Shown piece after piece: positions 1,424-29,516 of a stretch of DNA of 64,000 nucleotides. The first letter of the stretch is position 1. Each line of letters starts with the position of its first letter. Below the pieces are notes generated by a model, which searched no databases, was not told the DNA's origin, and saw only the letters and a list, made by a program, of their open reading frames with translations. A program made the translations under genes and the position numbers. The stretch comes from an uncultured Pseudomonadota bacterium (GTDB lineage Bacteria > Pseudomonadota > Alphaproteobacteria > Rs-D84): positions 121,617 through 185,616 of the forward strand of contig OOHL01000001.1 of NCBI GenBank assembly GCA_900321105.1. Reading direction: 5' to 3'.

Positions 1424-3412
1424 ATGCAAGTTTATGTGAATATCGAAAATAAAAGTTGGAAAAAATATAAAATTGATTTCGAAAAAATCGCAAATGCGGC
1501 GGTTTTGCCCGTGCACAAGAATTCAGAAGTTTCGATAACTTTGATCGATGATAAACAAATACATAAACTTAATAAACAATATCGTGGTATAGATAAGCCG
1601 ACAAATGTTTTATCTTTTGAACTGGGTGATGATGTTTTGTTGGGGGATATTTTTATATCGTTGGATACAGTTAAACGCGAAGCAAAGGCCGCGCATATTT
1701 CGGTCGAAGAACATACTGCGCATATGATTGTTCACGGCATGTTGCATTTGCAAGGATATGATCATATAAAAGACAAAGATGCAAAAATAATGGAATCTAA
1801 AGAAATAAAAATATTAGAGAAACTAGGATATAAAAACCCATATAAAGATGAAGAATGTGACATATCTTGTTGTCGTCATAATATCTTTTATAAATTACAG
1901 AATATAAAAATTCGCGAAAACAGTTTTGGGTGGTATTTTACCGCTGGCTTGTTGGGTATTATAACTTCATTTGGTTTTGCACCATTTAATTTATGGATGC
2001 TTTCGGTGTTTGGCATTGGATTTATGTATTATTTAGTAACACGGCAAAACAATCATATAAGTTTTTTGAAATCTTATTTGTTGGCATTTCCGTTTGGCGC
2101 TTTTTACGGAATCGCAATGTTTTGGTGGGTACTGAATTCGATATATGTGATGCCTGAACTAGCGGCTCAATTTGCAATATGGACAATTCCTGCATTGATA
2201 GGCATTGGTTTGTTGTGTGGTTTTATCTTGCCATTGCCGTTTGCGATTATTCGATATGTTCACAGAAATTCTGCACAAAGGGTAATTTTGTTTGCTGTGC
2301 TCTGGGTGCTTGTTTTATGGGGACGTGAATGGTTTTTAACAGGTTTTCCATGGAACCCAATTTCCAATATCACAATGAATATTCCAATGGTGGTTAATTC
2401 TATGTCATTGTGGGGTGCAATCGGATTAAGTTTTGTTATAATCGGTGTCATCGCATCATTTGTTGAATTATGCAGAAAAAACAGAATATCAAATTGGTTT
2501 GTTTTTGTTATGTACATTGTTTTGTTTTTAATTGGTTGTGCATTTGGTTATCACAATATGAGATTATCTGATAATATAATAAATAAATCCCCACTAATAA
2601 GAATTGTGCAGCCGGCACAATCTGCCGTATACAAGATTCCGTCTAGTAGGGAAGAAGCGCAAAATATTGCAAAGCAAAAGATACGCGATTTATTTGTTTG
2701 GGCTACAAATGATAAAGATGAAAATCCATCCATAATAGTGTTCCCAGAAACAGCATATCCATATACTGTTGTTGATAATGTATTTCCGTTGTCACGTATT
2801 TTAAACACAGATGTTATAATGGGTGCCAATTCATATAGTGATGGTAATACATATAATTCAATGGTTGTTGCAGATAAAAATGGAATAATTCAAAAATTAT
2901 ACAGTAAATCACATTTAGTGCCATTTGGTGAATATCGTCCGTTTGGTGATATTATCCCAACACCAGGCGAATTAACTGCTGGAAATGGCAAGGAATTGAT
3001 AAGTATCGGCGAATTTTCTTTTGCACCTGCAATTTGTTATGAAATTATATTTTCAGATTCTTTGGTGCCATATGGTACACATCCTGATGCGATTATCAAT
3101 ATAACAAACGACACATGGTTTGGGATGACGCCTGGTGTGTTCCAGCATCTTGATATGGTTCGCAGATATGCAATAGAATCTGGTTTGCCAATTATTCGTG
3201 CAAATTATTCGGGTATAAGCGCGTTTGTTGGGGCTGATGGGAATGTTATATCTATGATGCCAGTTGGCGAAACAGGAAGTTTAGACGGTTTTGTCTGGGG
3301 GGCACATAATACACCATACAGAATAATAGGACGAGATATGTGGATGGCGTTTATTTTGATGTTTTCAATATTTGCTTCAATATCCATATCCTTGTTTCAG
3401 AAGAAAGATTAG
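1424..3412 (+). CDS. ybeY/lnt: YbeY endoribonuclease domain (N-terminal ~150 aa) fused in one ORF to apolipoprotein N-acyltransferase Lnt
   Basis: HGMLHLQGYDH metal-binding motif of YbeY; then multi-TM region and carbon-nitrogen hydrolase domain (VFPETAYPY, ICYEIIF) typical of Lnt; a single uninterrupted 662-aa ORF. Confidence 0.7.
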   Translation: MQVYVNIENKSWKKYKIDFEKIANAAVLPVHKNSEVSITLIDDKQIHKLNKQYRGIDKPTNVLSFELGDDVLLGDIFISLDTVKREAKAAHISVEEHTAHMIVHGMLHLQGYDHIKDKDAKIMESKEIKILEKLGYKNPYKDEECDISCCRHNIFYKLQNIKIRENSFGWYFTAGLLGIITSFGFAPFNLWMLSVFGIGFMYYLVTRQNNHISFLKSYLLAFPFGAFYGIAMFWWVLNSIYVMPELAAQFAIWTIPALIGIGLLCGFILPLPFAIIRYVHRNSAQRVILFAVLWVLVLWGREWFLTGFPWNPISNITMNIPMVVNSMSLWGAIGLSFVIIGVIASFVELCRKNRISNWFVFVMYIVLFLIGCAFGYHNMRLSDNIINKSPLIRIVQPAQSAVYKIPSSREEAQNIAKQKIRDLFVWATNDKDENPSIIVFPETAYPYTVVDNVFPLSRILNTDVIMGANSYSDGNTYNSMVVADKNGIIQKLYSKSHLVPFGEYRPFGDIIPTPGELTAGNGKELISIGEFSFAPAICYEIIFSDSLVPYGTHPDAIINITNDTWFGMTPGVFQHLDMVRRYAIESGLPIIRANYSGISAFVGADGNVISMMPVGETGSLDGFVWGAHNTPYRIIGRDMWMAFILMFSIFASISISLFQKKD

Positions 3413-11228: not shown

Positions 11229-11339
11229 GGAATATGAATACATACATATAGTTTTTATTATCTGTATTATATAAAATTAAGCACAGAATTTTTTTGTTTA
11301 CAATACAGCACAAGATGTTTTACACTGATTTTGAACCTG

Positions 11340-11530
11340 ATAATTGGGTTCGGGGCTGTCGAAAGCCTTGGTACATTCGGTGCGAAAGCATCGTTAAATG
11401 ATGTTGTGCGGTGTTTTTGCACCGATTCATATCCCCTGCGATTATGGTTGGGGGGCCGCGTACGTATATATAAATGTCGCGGAATCACCAATGTACTGAT
11501 TTTCGAACCCCCCGACCGCCCAATTGGTAG
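11340..11530. ncRNA. GC-rich structured noncoding element, candidate small RNA of unknown class
   Basis: about 50% GC in a roughly 33% GC genome; nested long-range pairings GGGTTCG/CGAACCC and GGTACATT(C)GGTG/CACCAATGTAC enclose three local hairpins; no plausible ORF. Confidence 0.25.
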
Positions 11531-11552
11531 CGTTTTTTATATTGGGGATAAA

Positions 11553-12500
11553 TTGTTTAAAATATTAAAGTATTTTTATTTAATTTATTTTGTATTTGTT
11601 ATCGCAAATACAGCGTATGCTGCGTCTTGCGCAACAGATTACGGTGTTGCGGTTCATCCTGTTGATCTGGATTTTAATATTAACAATCCTGAATATCCTG
11701 ATGAAATTACATTGACGGACAAAGGATTAAATACAGGTACATTTGTATTATCGGATGATGGAAATTGTTATTCGGGATATGAACCATACACGCGCGGTGG
11801 CGGTGATGTTTATCCATTAATAGAAGATTCAGATTTATGTGCGGATGGTTATTATCGTTCTGCTGGGAATTGTGTTGCGTTTACGGATGGTGGTTGTCCA
11901 ACAGGTCGTTATAATTCGGCGGTAAATATTGCGACATTTGTTGCATCAGAAGATGGTAATTGTTATTCCGGATTTGATGTTTATACGCGCAGCGGTGACG
12001 ATATATATCCATTGGTAGATTCGTCAAATTCGATATTGTGCCCGGCAGGTCAATATATGGCGAACGGAACATGTACGGCATATCCAATTGGCACATGTCC
12101 AGAAAATATGAAAAACACAACAACGAATTCTGCGACATGGTCGGCGATGACAAACGGTGTATGCCCATCTAATTATACAGAATATACAATATCAACCATT
12201 GAATACGCGTGTGACACGTATGTCAGTCACATAACATCCGAAACGCCGGCATGTTTGCTGATGTGTACAAATGGGCAAACTTTCTCGGAAGTAAATTCAT
12301 GTTCCGCGTTATGTGCCGATCATCATCAATTGATGACAGATACAGGTTTGGAATTCCCGATGTACACAACAAAACAAATCACGCCATCGTTGAATATACA
12401 GGTTGGGAATAATGTATGTTATGTGAATTTGGTCAGCGGTGCATCAGATGATGCGATAAATATAAAGTATAACAACACAACCTATCATACGGTGAAATAA
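11553..12500 (+). CDS. secreted Cys-rich protein with internal tandem repeats (TTG start)
   Basis: in-frame TTG preceded by GGGGA; signal peptide LFKILKYFYLIYFVFVIANTAYA; repeated DGNCYSGxxxYTRxGxDxYPL units; the annotated upstream extension covers the structured RNA-like region and is rejected. Confidence 0.5.
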   Translation: MFKILKYFYLIYFVFVIANTAYAASCATDYGVAVHPVDLDFNINNPEYPDEITLTDKGLNTGTFVLSDDGNCYSGYEPYTRGGGDVYPLIEDSDLCADGYYRSAGNCVAFTDGGCPTGRYNSAVNIATFVASEDGNCYSGFDVYTRSGDDIYPLVDSSNSILCPAGQYMANGTCTAYPIGTCPENMKNTTTNSATWSAMTNGVCPSNYTEYTISTIEYACDTYVSHITSETPACLLMCTNGQTFSEVNSCSALCADHHQLMTDTGLEFPMYTTKQITPSLNIQVGNNVCYVNLVSGASDDAINIKYNNTTYHTVK

Positions 12501-12557: not shown

Positions 12558-12735
12558 AAGTTCCGCCCCCGTGGGGGGGAGAATTAAAAGTTCTCCTCCT
12601 TTGGAGGAGTCCCCGCAGGGGGAGGTGGTAAGAGAGTGCAAATACTTGGAAAGACCACCCCGTCACTTCGTGCCACCCCTCCATAGAGGGGAACTAAGAA
12701 ATTCCGCCCCCGTGGGGGGGGAGAATATAAAAACT
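12558..12735. repeat. composite intergenic hairpin repeat, copy 1 (units A, B, C)
   Basis: ctcctcc-ttt-ggaggag, ccccc-gtg-ggggg and cccctc-cata-gagggg hairpins; unit C is repeated nearly verbatim at 13869..13947. Confidence 0.7.
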
Positions 12736-12817: not shown

Positions 12818-13226
12818 ATGAAACGCATAATGATATTTTTGATAATGATAATGGGAATATATTCAAACAAATACCGCGGTTGCGGTGTTAAATAAATTGG
12901 TTGGGGGCAGTGTTGATAATTCAACAACTGGACATCGATGGCAGGTTAACATGACGGATACCACCGCCGTCAAAGGCAAATCGTTATGTACAGGTATGCC
13001 TGGGGATTTTGCGGTTGTGAATACCGGTGTCGCCGATACAACCGATACCGGTTATCATTGCTATTGCAAAATGATGGCACCGGCAACATCGTATTGGGTA
13101 AATGCCAGTGGTTCATCGCCGTATGCGACTGAATCTGAATGTGAAAGCGGGTGTAACAGTGCATGTGCGAATTATATGGCAACAAATACAACATTTCGCA
13201 GCGCCGTATACGAAGCAGTGTGGTAA
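12818..13226 (+). pseudogene. frameshifted paralog of the DGR target gene
   Basis: a signal-peptide ORF MKRIMIFLIMIMG stops after 26 codons; the +1 frame (open from 12852) continues into a 113-aa ORF whose C-terminus (HCYCKMMAP..SYW...C.S.C..C.NY) parallels the active target (RYCWCKMTHP..SLW...C.S.C..C.NY). Confidence 0.5.
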
Positions 13227-13228
13227 GG

Positions 13229-13270
13229 GTTCTCCTCCTTCGGAGGAGTCCCCACAGGGTGAGAATAAAA
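13229..13270. repeat. composite hairpin repeat, short copy (unit B plus the tail of unit C)
   Basis: ctcctcc-ttc-ggaggag hairpin followed by gagaataaaa, as in the other copies. Confidence 0.6.
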
Positions 13271-13285
13271 CAAAAGGAAGAAAAA

Positions 13286-13756
13286 ATGAAAAAGATATGG
13301 ATATGTGTGTTAATGATAATGGTGTTTGTAATACCAGCGTTGGCTGTGTCGGTCTGTGCCAAAGACAGTGTTGTTACGGTTGTATTGGATCCATCAATCG
13401 GTGGTAATTCATATACATATAATAACAGCACAGGCGTGTGGAAAACGGTGTTTTCGTACGGCAATGTGTCGGGGGTCAGCACATGTTCAACCGTCGCCCC
13501 AACGGGTGGCAGGGGTTCAACCAATACCAGTGCAGGCACCCCATTGGATGCCGTTGCAGGCGATACATCGGGACGATATTGTTGGTGTAAAATGACACAC
13601 CCAATGTCTTCGCTTTGGGCGTTCCTCTACGACTACGGGTTTGCTTCGAATTGCGCTTCGAACTGTGCGACCATCTGCGGTAACTACGTCCGGAACGGCG
13701 GCGATTTGCGCGGCGGGCTGTTCGGTTCGGTCGCCGCTGCGAATGCAGCGTATTGA
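13286..13756 (+). CDS. DGR target (variable) protein: small secreted Cys-rich protein with the VR at its C-terminus
   Basis: AAGGAAG RBS; signal peptide MKKIWICVLMIMVFVIPALA; the last ~45 codons align with the TR except at TR adenines. Confidence 0.8.
   Translation: MKKIWICVLMIMVFVIPALAVSVCAKDSVVTVVLDPSIGGNSYTYNNSTGVWKTVFSYGNVSGVSTCSTVAPTGGRGSTNTSAGTPLDAVAGDTSGRYCWCKMTHPMSSLWAFLYDYGFASNCASNCATICGNYVRNGGDLRGGLFGSVAAANAAY
13605..13734 (+). repeat. DGR variable repeat (VR)
   Basis: 130 bp; 116/130 identical to the TR at 14065..14194; 13 of 14 mismatches lie at TR adenines, 1 is C to G. Confidence 0.85.
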
Positions 13757-13802
13757 TGTAACGCAAGGGCCGTGGCACGAACACGCGTGACACGATAATG
13801 CG

Positions 13803-13829
13803 CCCGACACCACGGCAAGTGGTGTCGGG
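13803..13829 (+). promoter_or_regulatory. GC-rich 10-bp stem-loop about 45 nt downstream of the VR (candidate DGR homing-enhancing hairpin or terminator)
   Basis: cccgacacca-cggcaag-tggtgtcggg perfect inverted repeat. Confidence 0.5.
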
Positions 13830-13837
13830 AATTAAAA

Positions 13838-13947
13838 TTTCTCCTCCTTTGGAGGAGTCCTTGGAAATACACCCCGTCACTTCGTGCCACCCCTTCATAG
13901 AGGGGAACTAAGAAGTTCCGCACCCGCGGGGGGGAGAACATAAAAAA
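13838..13947. repeat. composite intergenic hairpin repeat, copy 2 (units B and C)
   Basis: near-identical to 12591..12735. Confidence 0.7.
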
Positions 13948-14064
13948 CAGGAATAAAAACGAATCTTTGACAACAGGGTGTGATAAGTTGTATTGTTATG
14001 TTCAAGGGTATATCGCCGTATCGGTTGTGCGGTAGCTGATTCGTGGGGCGTGGCTGGGTTGTCG

Positions 14065-14194
14065 TGTCTTCGCTTTGGGCGTTCAACAACGACAACGGGA
14101 ATGCTTCGAATTGCGCTTCGAACTGTACGAACAACTGCGGTAACAACGTCCAGAACAACGCCGATTTGCGCGGCGGGCTGTTCGGTTCGGTCGC
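14065..14194 (+). repeat. DGR template repeat (TR), noncoding
   Basis: adenine-rich (about 28 A, many AAC/AAT triplets in the VR reading frame); matches the VR except at adenines. Confidence 0.85.
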
Positions 14195-14596
14195 TCCTTT
14201 GCAAGGTTATAACTTTGAATGCAAAGACAAAGTTTGGCTAACCTGTGGGACAAAGTGGTAAAACACTTTTCAGATGCGGATGTATCTGTTTATATATGCC
14301 TTGTCACATCAAAGGCGGGGCGGTATATCCTGTCCGAATACAAAGGACCAAACACAATACACAGGGGACATCTGGACTGGTAGGGTTTTTAACCTGAACG
14401 CCCTGGATGTCCAATACAAGTAGATTCGGGAACGAAGTGTATCGGAATCGTCACGGTATGCGCGCAGACACATAGTGTCGAGCGAATACGAGAATACATA
14501 ATTAGAAAAATCATAAAAACGGAGCTGTTTGATATGAGTTTTTATAGATTTTTATTATTGTGTATCGAGGAAAAAAATAAAACGAAGAGATAATAA

Positions 14597-14923
14597 ATGA
14601 CTTTAGATGAAATTAAAAAATTAGATGCAACATCTTGTCCAAGATTTTCGGCGTTCGCTAAAAATCAATTACCAATGCCGGGAAATAAAAAACGCCTTGA
14701 TGATATTTTAAACCGCGAAATTACTGTTATTGATTATCGAATTCGTAAATCTACGAAACGTGATGGCACCGAATGTTTACAAATGCAATTTTTACTGGGT
14801 GATGAAGTCTGTGTTGTTTTTACCGGCAGCAGCGTTTTAATCAACCAAATCAAAGAATCCAAAGATAATATTCCTTTTACTGCAACTTTGGTCAAAATGG
14901 ACAGATATTATTCTTTTTCTTGA
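14597..14923 (+). CDS. DGR accessory protein (not obviously Avd-like), 108 aa, ends 4 nt before the RT start
   Basis: position between TR and RT; beta-rich composition rather than a basic helical bundle. Confidence 0.45.
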   Translation: MTLDEIKKLDATSCPRFSAFAKNQLPMPGNKKRLDDILNREITVIDYRIRKSTKRDGTECLQMQFLLGDEVCVVFTGSSVLINQIKESKDNIPFTATLVKMDRYYSFS

Positions 14924-14927
14924 AACG

Positions 14928-15956
14928 ATGAAACGTTATAAAAATCTTTGGGATAAATTTATTTCTATGGAAAATCTGGAATTAGCAGCAAAAAAAGCAG
15001 TTAAATCCAAAAAAAATAAACCAGAAACAAAACTGTTTTTAGAACATAAAACAGAATTCTTGCTGAAATTACAACAAATGTTAATTGATGGGAATTTTAA
15101 TACATCCCAATATAAAGTTCGCAGAATTTTTGAACCAAAAGAAAGACTGATTTATATTTTACCCCTTTATCCAGATCATATTGTGCATCATGCGTTGATA
15201 AATATTCTGGGACCAATTTGGCAAAGTGGTTTTATTCGTGATTCTTATGCCTGTATCCCAGGCAGGGGATTGCATGCCGCATCAACCGCGATAATGAAAT
15301 TTATTCGTCGAAATAAATATGTTCTGCAATGCGATATTCGCAAATTTTATCCGTCCATAAATCATGATGTAATGTTTAATATAATAAAAAAGAAAATTGG
15401 CGATAAACGATTGTTGAATTTGTTACATAATATTATATGGTCATGTGGTGACGAAACAAATCTGCCAATTGGTAATTTAACATCACAATGGATGGGAAAT
15501 GTTTATATGAACGAATTGGATCATTTTGTAAAAGAACAATTACGATGCACGGACTATATTCGTTATTGTGATGATTTTTGTTTGTTCGCAAATGATAAAA
15601 AAACTTTGCATGAATATGAAAATAAATTGCATCAATTTGTGCGTGATAAATTAAAATTGGTATTTTCTAAATCTGTAATTCGAGTTGTTGCAAATGGGGT
15701 TGCGTTTATTGGTTATCGGCATTTCAAAAAATTTATATTGTTGCGAAGATATGGTGCTAAAAAAATGCGAAAACGTATTCTGCATATTGCAAAATACAGG
15801 GATAAATCTGATTTGGCAATTGGACAATTAGCGGCATATCATGGTTGGGCTAAATGGTGTTGCAGTCATAATTTTCTGACAGACGTTTGCAATCGTGCAA
15901 AAGAAATATCTGAAAAAACAGGTCAATTTATTTTTTGCAATTTGTTCAAGAATTAA
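14928..15956 (+). CDS. DGR-type reverse transcriptase
   Basis: RT motifs QCDIRKFYPSI, LPIGNLTSQ (the DGR-specific SQ motif) and YIRYCDDF (YxDD); 342 aa, typical DGR RT size. Confidence 0.85.
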   Translation: MKRYKNLWDKFISMENLELAAKKAVKSKKNKPETKLFLEHKTEFLLKLQQMLIDGNFNTSQYKVRRIFEPKERLIYILPLYPDHIVHHALINILGPIWQSGFIRDSYACIPGRGLHAASTAIMKFIRRNKYVLQCDIRKFYPSINHDVMFNIIKKKIGDKRLLNLLHNIIWSCGDETNLPIGNLTSQWMGNVYMNELDHFVKEQLRCTDYIRYCDDFCLFANDKKTLHEYENKLHQFVRDKLKLVFSKSVIRVVANGVAFIGYRHFKKFILLRRYGAKKMRKRILHIAKYRDKSDLAIGQLAAYHGWAKWCCSHNFLTDVCNRAKEISEKTGQFIFCNLFKN

Positions 15957-21227: not shown

Positions 21228-23501
21228 TTAATTATGCAATGGTTCCAATACTTTTATTTCATTGGTGTTTGGATTCAAAACGCGTGGCACACCATCGTAT
21301 CCCATAATTGCATGATGCGATGGGATTAAAAATTCAGGTAATGGGGATGCTTCGCCCATCAAGACTTTTTCATGCAATTTCTTTTGAACAGGGGTTTTAT
21401 TAAGGAAATGGAATTCTTGGTCTGCTTCGATTGGACGATGATACCATCCTTGATAAATAACCAATTGTTTGCCTGGTTTTAATCTCATAATATCGTATTC
21501 GCTGTAAAGAGGTTCTTCTTTTGGTGTTTCGACTTCTTTGCCGTCTTTATCGGTTTCGACTTTCTTAGTCTTTTTCTGACCAATCATATCTGAAAATCTG
21601 CGTGCAGTATCCGGGTCGTTTTGACGCATAACAACTTTTGCCGCAGTTGTTGAAATAATTGTTGATGCGGCATCATTTCCATATTTTTCACTTATCTGGT
21701 GAATATCTTGACCGATGATTAAATAAGATACTTTTTGTCCGCGTCCCAAATCTGGTCCCTGAATAACAGCATCCAATTTTTGCATTTTTGGCATTTCATC
21801 CAAAACAAACAACACTGGACAAGGTCCCATTTTTACACCGTCAACAACCTGGTCCACATTGTGTGCCAATAAATAATTAGACATCAATTCAATGAATATC
21901 GCGGTTATTGGATTCAAAGCCTGGGCATCAACCATATTAATAGAAAGATATACCGTCACAGGTTTAATTTTTCCATCCCTTGGATCCATCATGCCACGCA
22001 TATCCTTGAAATGAAAATCAGAATGTGATGTTCTGTTTCTAACTGCAGCATTACGGAATATTGCCAGGCCTTCCATCATGGTGGAAAGAATTGATCCGCG
22101 TTCTTTATCAGGTGTATTTGCCAATTGCGTTAATTCAGAAACAGCACGATTTGCATACGCGTAACGGCGTGCTTCTTCAACCGCATCCAAAAGCAAATTT
22201 TTCATAGGATCTGCCATCATAACCATTTGATCGCCTTGCTTGCGACGTTCTTCCATTTCTTCGGCGATGGCAACCTGGGAAGATGTTAACCAATCAAGAA
22301 TCATGGAAAATGAAGCCTCGCGGCCACGCCATGAATCTGGGATGTGTGCCCATGTTCCAACATGGACATAATTGTTAATATTTAATTCGCCCTTATTCAA
22401 AATAGAATAGGCGGCATACGCGTTCGGATCGTTCATCATTGATAAATAATAGTCGCCCAACACAGCTGCATCGTCGCTGTTAAATGTCCCGTTGTTTATA
22501 CGTGCATAGAAATAGTCATCGGCGCGTGCGCGTTCAACCTTGGATACAATAAAGTTAATAAGTCCAGATAATCCGGCGCGACCAGTATTTGCCCAGTGCG
22601 GATCCGCAGTTGAAGATTTGCTGTCTGGGACCAAAACCTTGGCCATGGAATCGATATACAAATCACGTTGTTCTGGATTGTATGGAATATGGTCTGGCGA
22701 TAATGGATTCCAAGATGGATAATATATACCACGTGCTGGATCGTCCTGACCTGCCCAATTCATAATGAACACTGGTCCAATCGTTGAACGATAACCAGAT
22801 GTGTCTTGTTTTAATTCTGGTTTCGGGTCGTTAATAATCATTGAAACATTATCACAATCTAAAATTGTCGGTAAAACAACACCTTGGGTTTTACCGGTTC
22901 CTGGGGGTGCAACGCACAATGTTGATAACGCTTCATCCATCATAAGTGGTGTTTGTTTTCCTTTGTATTTGAAATAACCCAATACCATCATAAAACCATG
23001 GAAAAGACCTTCCTTGTTTTTGGGGTCTTGACCCATTTTTACGATATCTTCGGCGGTTGCCTTGCGCGCAGATTTTTCATCGTATTTATCTTTGCTGTGT
23101 GGATTGAATTCAGATTTAAATGTGGAATCGGCCAAGAAGTAATATCCCAAAATCGGTAATAATGGTGTAATTGATGCAAAATCTGGATGGTTTAATGTGC
23201 GAATTATCCAATAAGGAACTTCTGCAATTGCGGAAAGCCCAAACGTCATAAACAAATTTTTTATATAAATCAGTGTCCAATGTTCACTGGCCGGACCCCA
23301 TCCATATCGCCATATATGTTCAACCGCAAAAGACATACCAAACATTAATGCGCATATCAACCAAATACCAACATCCCAACGCAATTCCCAGAATTTGCGC
23401 GCCATTGGTGTTTGTTCGTGTTCCTTGTATGCGCTGGATTCAAAAATTTTTAATCCTTTGCCGGAACCACTGGATGATAAAATGTTGAACTTTATTGCCA
23501 T
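21228..23501 (-). CDS. virD4: type IV secretion coupling protein (VirD4/TraG family) with an N-terminal membrane extension
   Basis: Walker A VAPPGTGKTQGVVLPTIL; Walker B VLFVLDEMPKMQKL; N-terminal TM helices. Confidence 0.75.
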   Translation of the reverse strand: MAIKFNILSSSGSGKGLKIFESSAYKEHEQTPMARKFWELRWDVGIWLICALMFGMSFAVEHIWRYGWGPASEHWTLIYIKNLFMTFGLSAIAEVPYWIIRTLNHPDFASITPLLPILGYYFLADSTFKSEFNPHSKDKYDEKSARKATAEDIVKMGQDPKNKEGLFHGFMMVLGYFKYKGKQTPLMMDEALSTLCVAPPGTGKTQGVVLPTILDCDNVSMIINDPKPELKQDTSGYRSTIGPVFIMNWAGQDDPARGIYYPSWNPLSPDHIPYNPEQRDLYIDSMAKVLVPDSKSSTADPHWANTGRAGLSGLINFIVSKVERARADDYFYARINNGTFNSDDAAVLGDYYLSMMNDPNAYAAYSILNKGELNINNYVHVGTWAHIPDSWRGREASFSMILDWLTSSQVAIAEEMEERRKQGDQMVMMADPMKNLLLDAVEEARRYAYANRAVSELTQLANTPDKERGSILSTMMEGLAIFRNAAVRNRTSHSDFHFKDMRGMMDPRDGKIKPVTVYLSINMVDAQALNPITAIFIELMSNYLLAHNVDQVVDGVKMGPCPVLFVLDEMPKMQKLDAVIQGPDLGRGQKVSYLIIGQDIHQISEKYGNDAASTIISTTAAKVVMRQNDPDTARRFSDMIGQKKTKKVETDKDGKEVETPKEEPLYSEYDIMRLKPGKQLVIYQGWYHRPIEADQEFHFLNKTPVQKKLHEKVLMGEASPLPEFLIPSHHAIMGYDGVPRVLNPNTNEIKVLEPLHN

Positions 23502-29084: not shown

Positions 29085-29516
29085 TTAATGTTTGCGTTGT
29101 TCGTATTCTTCTTGTTCTTCGACTGTCATTGTTGCCAATGGACGTGCCAACATACGTTGCAATCCGATTTCATCACCGGATATTACACTGTATCCAAACG
29201 TCCCGTTTTCAATGCGTTGCAAAGCGGCATTTACTTTTTCCAATAAATTCGCATTACGTTCAGACATACGCAAATTCATAGTGATTTCTTGTTCGGCAGA
29301 TGCCTGGTCTTGTTCGTCACCAACCCCAGCAGTTTCATTTTTTTCAGCCATACGAACATCATTCAAAACGTCTTCGCGGTCGTGCATGATTTCTTCGCGT
29401 TGTGCGTTTAACAACTGATAAAAATATGCCAATTGTTCATCGCACATATATGGTTCTGATTTTTTTGGGGTGTATTTTGCATCCAAAACAATATTTTTAT
29501 AATTCTTTTTTGCCAT
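29085..29516 (-). CDS. dksA: DksA-family RNAP-binding transcription factor (no Cys4 zinc finger)
   Basis: coiled-coil with acidic tip; C-terminal domain lacks the CxxC pairs. Confidence 0.65.
   Translation of the reverse strand: MAKKNYKNIVLDAKYTPKKSEPYMCDEQLAYFYQLLNAQREEIMHDREDVLNDVRMAEKNETAGVGDEQDQASAEQEITMNLRMSERNANLLEKVNAALQRIENGTFGYSVISGDEIGLQRMLARPLATMTVEEQEEYEQRKH

Follow-up and report, generated by a model that had tools for sequence, protein, structure and literature searches.

The mechanism of diversity-generating retroelements (DGRs) is known almost entirely from one phage element that requires the accessory protein Avd. In that element, the BPP-1 DGR, the target gene mtd, the gene avd for the accessory protein, a template repeat (TR) and the reverse transcriptase (RT) gene brt follow one another in this order, and a variable repeat (VR) at the 3′ end of the target differs from the TR by A-to-N changes. 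A ‘cPRT stop’ duplex brackets the TR in the BPP-1 ribonucleoprotein, where a bRT-binding stem is also found (Handa et al., bioRxiv 10.1101/2023.10.23.563531), and the consensus for BPP-1-type hairpins is a 7–10 bp GC-rich stem with a GRNA loop, 4–34 bp downstream of the VR; a GC-rich 3′ end of the VR (IMH) that differs from its counterpart in the TR (IMH*) is a further target-site signal of DGRs. Accessory proteins described so far fall into the classes Avd (74%), HRDC, MSL and CH1, and 29% of DGRs are listed without an accessory gene; about a quarter of DGRs lack Avd, from which an ‘Avd-independent’ mechanism has been inferred (Wu et al. 2018, PMC5758913). As reported by Roux et al. [quoted passage not shown] Here we describe an element in a 64,000-nt stretch of contig OOHL01000001.1 from an uncultured alphaproteobacterium (assembly GCA_900321105.1; the whole stretch is called the window below), which is a genuine DGR and lies outside the canonical Avd and C-type lectin type. 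It very probably is a chromosomal DGR of a Candidatus Enterousia-like (order Rs-D84) gut alphaproteobacterium, operating by the mechanism proposed below. Its core consists of six features.

13286–13756, plus strand: DGR target gene, encoding a 156-aa protein with a signal peptide and seven invariant cysteines (homologue alignment A1, AF2 model)
13605–13734, plus strand: VR (direct repeat and recount)
14065–14194, plus strand: TR (direct repeat, recount and codon analysis)
14195–14418, plus strand: conserved structured non-coding RNA, analogue of the spacer (Sp) (alignment A4, 26 species)
14597–14923, plus strand: accessory gene, encoding a 108-aa predicted OB-fold protein with an isoelectric point of 8.8 (stop codon 4 nt before the RT start)
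14928–15956, plus strand: DGR-type RT, 342 aa (profile and sequence matches to RT families)

As in BPP-1, an A-to-N TR/VR pair lies at the 3′ end of the target, the TR is rich in AAY codons, the RT carries the IGxxxSQ and YxDD motifs and can be aligned full-length to bRT, a structured RNA follows the TR, a duplex between sequences upstream and downstream of the TR resembles the cPRT-stop duplex, and a hairpin, here shorter and with a different loop, follows the VR. Unlike BPP-1, a predicted OB-fold protein is found in place of the Avd four-helix bundle, the genes run target-TR-RNA-OB-RT instead of mtd-avd-TR-brt, the spacer has a length of about 225 nt compared with 140 nt and has no Rfam or sequence relation to that of BPP-1, the target has no C-type lectin match, and the locus is chromosomal and cellular, whereas that of BPP-1 is a phage tail-fibre locus.

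The original prediction, made from the sequence alone, had called a complete DGR here with a 130-nt direct repeat, and this repeat sits at exactly the coordinates it gave. Our recount found 14 mismatches in the 130 positions and upheld the claimed adenine bias, with 13 of the 14 falling on TR adenines (seven A>T, four A>G and two A>C) and a C>G change (TR 14161, VR 13701) as the sole exception. There are 28 adenines among the 130 TR bases, and a hypergeometric test on mismatches tabulated by TR base gives P = 1.8e-9 for at least 13 of 14 at adenines. All 13 adenine-site changes hit codon position 1 or 2 of the ORF (open reading frame) at 13286–13756. The TR, which translates as SSLWAFNNDNGNASNCASNCTNNCGNNVQNNADLRGGLFGSV, has all 28 of its adenines at codon positions 1 or 2, and its adenine-bearing codons comprise 12 AAY codons, the AAC/AAT load that had been noticed earlier, and four codons with a single adenine (GAC, ACG, CAG and GAT). 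No templated TR codon can become a stop codon by mutation of an adenine, and the theoretical repertoire of the TR amounts to 4^28 = 7e16 DNA variants and 3.3e16 protein variants. The edges of the homology are abrupt, with 20 nt identical at the 5′ end and 33 nt, GC-rich, at the 3′ end. The VR was said to end 22 nt before the stop, which is correct for the end of the ORF; the TGA stop codon itself is 19 nt away. Across the window we found no remote VRs. A 24-nt match (21/24, E 0.006) to the 5′ end of the TR and VR lies inside a minus-strand ORF at 29392–29415 and is probably due to chance.

The RT aligns full-length with the Bordetella phage bRT (PDB 8ub7), its best solved relative, at E 2e-48, whereas group II and retron RTs reach no better than 3e-18, and it matches the phage family phrog_1423 at E 3e-99. 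The two motifs that had been picked out in the 342-aa ORF both align with their bRT counterparts, LPIGNLTSQ with IPIGSLTSQ and YCDD with YMDD. The possibility that the RT belongs with the retron or group II enzymes, which would have told against a DGR, was checked by profile scores: with NCBIfam models it reaches 106 bits for group II (cut-off 300) and 68 bits for retron St85 (cut-off 235), and it stays under the cut-off of every Drt model, so that scores far under the cut-offs rule out a retron, group II or Drt identity. By its profile and alignment scores, the RT is of the DGR type.

We now turn to the accessory protein. OB-fold proteins of the SSB and PriB kind, which bind single-stranded DNA or RNA, are built as a beta-barrel of five strands in which a helix lies between strands 3 and 4. 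From its structural model, the 108-aa protein is predicted to have an OB fold, resembling single-strand-binding proteins. The accessory had been described as not looking like Avd, and we agree: no ORF between 10626 and 17929 matches Avd in Pfam or NCBIfam, and the cassette holds no four-helix bundle of the Pfam 23S rRNA-IVP family, by which avd is recognised, its sole conserved small gene being the one with the predicted OB fold. Sequence searches of Pfam, NCBIfam, PADLOC and the PDB returned nothing for the accessory protein; when the target and accessory proteins were both compared with these databases and PHROGs, only a weak match to phrog_19665 (function unknown, E 0.017) appeared.

A profile search over 1.84 billion representative proteins, clustered at 50% identity, found 738 relatives of the accessory protein at E ≤ 1e-3, of which 269 reach E ≤ 1e-10. 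Almost all have a length of 90–115 aa. In three relatives an RT domain is fused N-terminally to the OB domain, and the RT half of the one fusion tested (P0208) is bRT-like (E 1.8e-39). Matches in the phage collection were confined to two archaeal viruses, ANMV-1 and Methanosarcinales virus vir525 (loci L059 and L060), in both of which an ORF that has no annotation and immediately follows the DGR RT encodes the OB homologue. Among IMG/VR contigs, 120 carry an OB relative, of which we looked at 80: a DGR-type RT adjoins the OB gene in 79, with the RT first in 77, and the lone contig without an adjoining RT ends at the contig edge. Adenine-biased TR/VR pairs in the order VR-TR-RT-OB are present in 63 of the 82 viral loci (the 80 contigs, ANMV-1 and vir525). 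These elements look like the Architecture A DGRs (TR-RT, no accessory; Wu et al. 2018) with the addition of an overlooked downstream gene. The related viral loci were found with a narrow OB alignment (A6); the broad alignment (A5) contains no stretch conserved enough for such a search.

The ANMV-1 element, the first DGR described from an archaeal virus, shares with the window an OB homologue beside the RT, and the two RTs are 35% identical. It differs in having the OB gene after the RT rather than before it, and in its target, AdtA, a protein of the tail-fibre locus rather than a small secreted cellular protein. The ANMV-1 homologue (AJP62065.1; KP703175.1, 36106–36402) is annotated as hypothetical, and the Avd label was given to another small ORF (Paul et al. 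2015); for the ORFs of Nanoarchaeota, a legend in that study names isoelectric point and size as the criterion. Pfam finds no Avd in the ANMV-1 cassette. We found no description of an OB-fold or SSB-like DGR accessory in the open-access literature, although an earlier account may exist elsewhere, and the OB-fold accessory family is apparently undescribed. From its gene linkage and predicted fold, we infer that the OB protein may be a cofactor that binds nucleic acid and stands in for Avd.

The target is a small secreted Cys-rich protein, as was originally proposed, with a Sec-type signal peptide (...PALA/VSVC...) that can be read from its sequence. The start given earlier, 13163, belongs to an ATG that lies further upstream in the same frame; judging from the homologues and the signal peptide, the true start is 13286. 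Its homologues form 113 clusters, all of them unannotated. The AlphaFold2 (AF2) model (pLDDT 83 overall, 94–96 over most of the mature domain) predicts a five-stranded sheet followed by helices at residues 120–137 and 139–154. The VR corresponds to residues 107–149, which would form the last strand (112–116), the following loop and most of both helices, and the templated codons are 114–117, 119, 122, 126, 128–130, 133, 134, 136–138 and 140. In the first helix, according to a reading of the secondary structure rather than of model coordinates, the templated residues lie about 180 degrees from the non-templated ones, which include C123, C127 and C131. This arrangement suggests a helix that is stapled to the sheet by disulfides and presents a variable outer face. 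We found no match of the target to a C-type lectin or Ig-like fold. Its scaffold, a 136-residue Cys-rich mature domain with an unrecognised fold, is apparently undescribed, and the protein is probably a ligand- or cell-binding factor.

Gene callers often miss the target gene and call an antisense ORF instead, as in L001, another assembly of this strain; a search for VR variants of this species through the antisense ORF over the VR found no record. In some public assemblies (proteins P0337, P0358 and P0360; homologue clusters 1 and 4) the target gene is joined to TR-flanking sequence, and the resulting proteins run on as ...GSVAPLQGNDFECKDKVW. These proteins are chimeras produced by collapse of the VR and TR, and hence false longer targets.

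On either side of the TR, and directly after the VR, we found further elements that bear on the template RNA and the target site.

13735–13750, plus strand: GC-rich hairpin CGCTGC-GAAT-GCAGCG inside the coding sequence (encoding AAANAA), directly after the VR homology (sequence and folding)
13967–13996, plus strand: promoter-like site TTGACA-18-TATTGT, from which the TR RNA could begin near 14003 (consensus match only)
14006–14017, plus strand: 5′ strand GGGTATATCGCC of a predicted long-range RNA duplex bracketing the TR (permutation test over 24 loci)
14319–14330, plus strand: 3′ strand GGCGGTATATCC of the same duplex, within the spacer RNA (permutation test over 24 loci)
14419–14596, plus strand: insertion of about 180 nt specific to this strain, separating the RNA element from the accessory gene (comparison of spacers between species)

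For the spacer RNA, the 224 nt after the TR, RNAalifold gives 35 pairs across the 26 species, 20 of them with compensatory changes. In a 33-pair structure, 95% of the cells are paired, compared with 27–45% in slid controls, and none of 500 shuffles reaches the observed measures. The RNA has a closing helix (CCTGY/RCAGG), two hairpins (AAAGTG/CACTTT and CAGATG/CATCTG) and a long, interrupted 3′ stem (GGGGACATCTGG...CCTGGATGTCC) that recalls the bRT-binding stem of the BPP-1 complex; judged by eye, a pseudoknot is likely at its 5′ end (TCCTTG...ACTTTAT...CAAGGA...ATAAAGT). The 5′ strand of the long-range duplex lies about 50 nt upstream of the TR and is predicted to pair with the spacer over 12 bp. 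Over the 24 loci, cognate pairs have a mean energy of −20.8 kcal/mol, compared with −13.2 kcal/mol for non-cognate pairs, and the cognate mean is reached by 0 of 10000 permutations. The TR is flanked by RNA that comparison between species shows to be a conserved, covarying structure, with a putative role in priming. At gathering thresholds, Rfam finds only two tRNAs in the whole window, and at E ≤ 1 it finds nothing over 13950–14620; this lineage-specific DGR RNA is apparently undescribed.

From the promoter-like site upstream of the TR, the RNA would begin immediately ahead of the 5′ duplex strand; other species do not conserve this site. The hairpin after the VR folds at −10.5 kcal/mol for 40 nt and is missing after the TR, where the conserved spacer start TCCTTKG follows. 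The two closest species have the same hairpin, and the rest have other hairpins 10–35 nt after the VR, which are possibly terminators. The spacer between the TR and the accessory gene is 402 nt long here, versus 238–291 nt in the other species aligned, all of which lack the insertion at 14419–14596; the inserted sequence carries a second promoter-like site, TTGATA-18-TATTAT, at 14529–14558.

According to the mechanism that we propose, an RNA would begin near 14003 and contain a 5′ leader, the TR and the structured 3′ spacer of about 225 nt, with the 12-bp leader-spacer duplex bracketing the TR. The RT and the OB-fold protein would copy the TR into complementary DNA (cDNA), putatively primed in cis by the TR-flanking RNA, and would misincorporate opposite adenines. 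The cDNA would replace the VR, guided by the identical 33-nt GC-rich 3′ end, the 20-nt 5′ end and the hairpin present only at the VR. Up to 16 codons would be randomised in this way, in the C-terminal part of a secreted disulfide-rich protein and mostly on one face of an alpha-helix.

Related organisms share this design. When one genome of each species was scanned for the accessory gene, it turned up in 50 species-level genomes. Their titles read Candidatus Enterousia or uncultured Alphaproteobacteria, and their sources are rumen and gut samples of sheep, goat, deer, buffalo, horse and human. A DGR-type RT accompanies the gene in 48 of the 50, mostly directly downstream, and 33 contain an adenine-biased TR/VR pair in the order VR-TR-RNA-OB-RT, with a TR that usually ends 240–290 nt ahead of the accessory gene; most of the others run into a contig end. 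We take as shown the anatomy of the element, its adenine-biased mismatches, the class of its RT, the covariation in its RNA, the linkage between the OB protein and DGR RTs, and VR-restricted variation among sister populations. Enterousia belongs to the order Rs-D84, with genomes that are mostly smaller than 1 Mb and lack the tricarboxylic acid cycle and respiration (PMC12306168). The host had been guessed to have a reduced, AT-rich genome, and this lineage bears the guess out; the GC content of the window is 36%. Within the cassette, GC content is split between the target, TR and intergenic region (13350–14250, 50–57%) and the accessory and RT genes (14600–15950, 27–33%).

The core of the element is as originally delimited, but the cassette reaches further, to two upstream secreted-protein genes and to the RNA elements flanking the TR. 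The unit consists of a Cys-rich gene, a target paralogue, the target with its VR, the TR, the RNA, the accessory gene and the RT. In other species the cassette has neighbours other than the housekeeping genes found beside it here, and it therefore moves as its own unit. A prophage context was rejected, as the genes on its flanks, among them those for EngA, a sigma factor and an outer-membrane protein, do not accompany it in other species. Some loci depart from the common layout: L039 has one TR and two VRs (1791–1921 and 3168–3300), L033 has the target between the accessory gene and the RT, and in L026, L041 and L053 the VR is on the strand opposite to the TR or downstream of the RT.

Variation among relatives of the target follows the template. 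Across the target family, templated positions have an entropy of 2.7 bits versus 1.0 elsewhere, while the scaffold is conserved, including the seven invariant cysteines. In nine target clusters formed at ≥90% identity, 199 of 568 columns are variable after the THP motif versus 73 of 1188 before it. From sample to sample there is hardly any change in the N-terminal two thirds, and the AAY-templated positions differ in almost every member. Such a pattern has the signature of ongoing mutagenic homing in sister populations, and because the variation there is largely confined to the VR, we regard the lineage as active.

Several observations weigh against parts of this account. Three independent assemblies of this strain, namely the window, L001 (from ERZ27279860) and L141 (from ERZ1051849), have one and the same VR, and two degenerate-pattern scans of JGI metagenome contigs found no further copies. 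The 180-nt insertion before the OB gene could affect co-transcription. The hairpin after the VR has a GAAT loop rather than GRNA and a stem of 6 bp rather than 7–10 bp. As for the OB protein, gene linkage and predicted fold are all that backs its role, and Avd is poorly conserved, so the lack of a Pfam match in the cassette leaves an Avd elsewhere in the genome possible. Because three assemblies of this strain share one VR, we limit the claim of current activity to the sister populations; the description of the element as active or recently active stands for them, given their VR-restricted variation, but not for this strain.

The first alternative to be weighed is that the element, though a bona fide DGR, has become inactive in this strain, with a frozen VR, so that the differences between TR and VR record past homing only. 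The single VR, seen in assemblies from at least two other samples, fits such a history, as do the strain-specific insertion upstream of the OB gene and the neighbouring paralogue, which is being deleted in two different ways. However, the RT and the OB gene are intact and fit the family consensus, the same holds for the TR, the RNA helices and the long-range duplex, the single non-adenine mismatch between TR and VR indicates little drift since the last homing, and consensus assemblies would hide minority VR variants. We consider inactivity in this strain unlikely, though it is the strongest of the alternatives.

The second alternative makes the OB gene merely a conserved neighbour, such as one for a phage-type SSB or an unrelated small protein, with these DGRs running on the RT alone or with an undetected Avd. 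It draws on the share of DGRs (29%) that Wu et al. (PMC5758913) list without an accessory gene, and on the great divergence of Avd sequences. Against it stand three different layouts, in which the OB gene precedes the RT (Enterousia), follows it (77 of 80 viral contigs and two archaeal viruses) or is fused to it; the adjacency also reaches from bacteria to archaeal viruses, although their RTs share only about 35% identity. Moreover, typical gaps in the viral loci sampled are about 70 nt between VR and TR and about 130 nt between TR and RT, too short for avd, and ten small upstream ORFs returned no Avd match. A bystander role is improbable, more so than inactivity in this strain.

Returning to the OB protein as a working part of the element, we are evenly divided on the full proposal that its family, spanning bacteria and archaeal viruses, is the missing cofactor of Avd-less DGRs, acting in Enterousia with its own 225-nt RNA and diversifying a non-lectin scaffold with a disulfide-stapled helix.

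The weakest alternative, an ordinary partial gene duplication beside an unrelated retron, group II or defence RT, has nothing in its favour beyond the presence of a repeat and an RT, and it is almost certainly wrong, being refuted by the 13 of 14 differences at TR adenines, by RT scores under the group II, retron and Drt cut-offs and by the same design in 33 genomes.

The most valuable lead from this locus is the OB-fold protein as a candidate cofactor for Avd-less DGRs. A protein that nearly always adjoins such RTs or is fused to them is a concrete candidate for the Avd-independent mechanism, and the first archaeal-virus DGR described carries its unannotated homologue after the RT, distinct from the ORF labelled Avd there. 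Together with an RNA of about 420 nt, the RT and the 108-aa protein make up a compact three-part system that might be tried out in tools for targeted mutagenesis. If the VR does lie on a helix of the 136-residue Cys-rich domain, this would break the C-type lectin rule of Roux et al. (2021). With the cassette, the very small gene set of Ca. Enterousia, an uncultured but widespread gut lineage, gains a secreted protein that is diversified by a DGR. In the CPR and DPANN, DGRs are enriched in organisms with reduced genomes that depend on partners, and the Enterousia DGR parallels this enrichment in symbionts. Like Legionella LdtA, Treponema TvpA and the CPR/DPANN elements, the present element is a cellular DGR that diversifies a secreted or surface protein; those systems have C-type lectin targets and Avd (or HRDC/MSL), neither of which was detected here.

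Two further secreted-protein genes precede the target.

11331–12500, plus strand: Cys-rich secreted protein gene, ORF of 389 aa with a true start that is probably later (upstream of the DGR in 18 of 50 related loci)
12818–13226, plus strand: non-diversified target paralogue, frameshifted by a 26-nt deletion after 12864 (comparison with L001 and L141)

The 389-aa protein belongs to no Pfam family, and in a profile comparison it has no significant similarity to the target beyond a short N-terminal motif. In many loci the paralogue lies between this gene and the target. It is intact in L001 (3832–4266, 144 aa), where it is 30% identical to the target over its full length, and it keeps the CxC and C-x3-C-x3-C scaffold of the target; no match to the TR was found in it. 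The deletion in the window lies at 12864–12893, and L141 has a larger deletion at the same place (about 2636). Both deletions take out the signal-peptide cleavage region and could be recurrent inactivation or an assembly artefact.

All three secreted proteins (11331–12500, 12818–13226 and 13286–13756) have in common a motif A-x-x-C-A-x-D-x-V-x-V after the signal peptide, in the versions ASCATDYGVAV, VTLCKKTNTAVAV and VSVCAKDSVVTV, which hints at a common module or an assembly strand. GC-rich palindromic repeats (TCTCCTCCTTTGGAGGAGTCC and companions) follow the cassette's three secreted-protein genes, at 12592–12612, 13231–13251 and 13840–13860 and also at 12560–12583 and 13915–13938, and occur nowhere else in the 64 kb. 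A 65-nt repeat is present at 12656–12720 and 13870–13934, and the region around 13859–13867 differs between assemblies, with 33 nt more in L001 and 7 nt fewer in L141. About 5 kb from the cassette, at 21228–23501 on the minus strand, lies a gene for a type IV secretion coupling protein (TraG/VirD4 family, Pfam).

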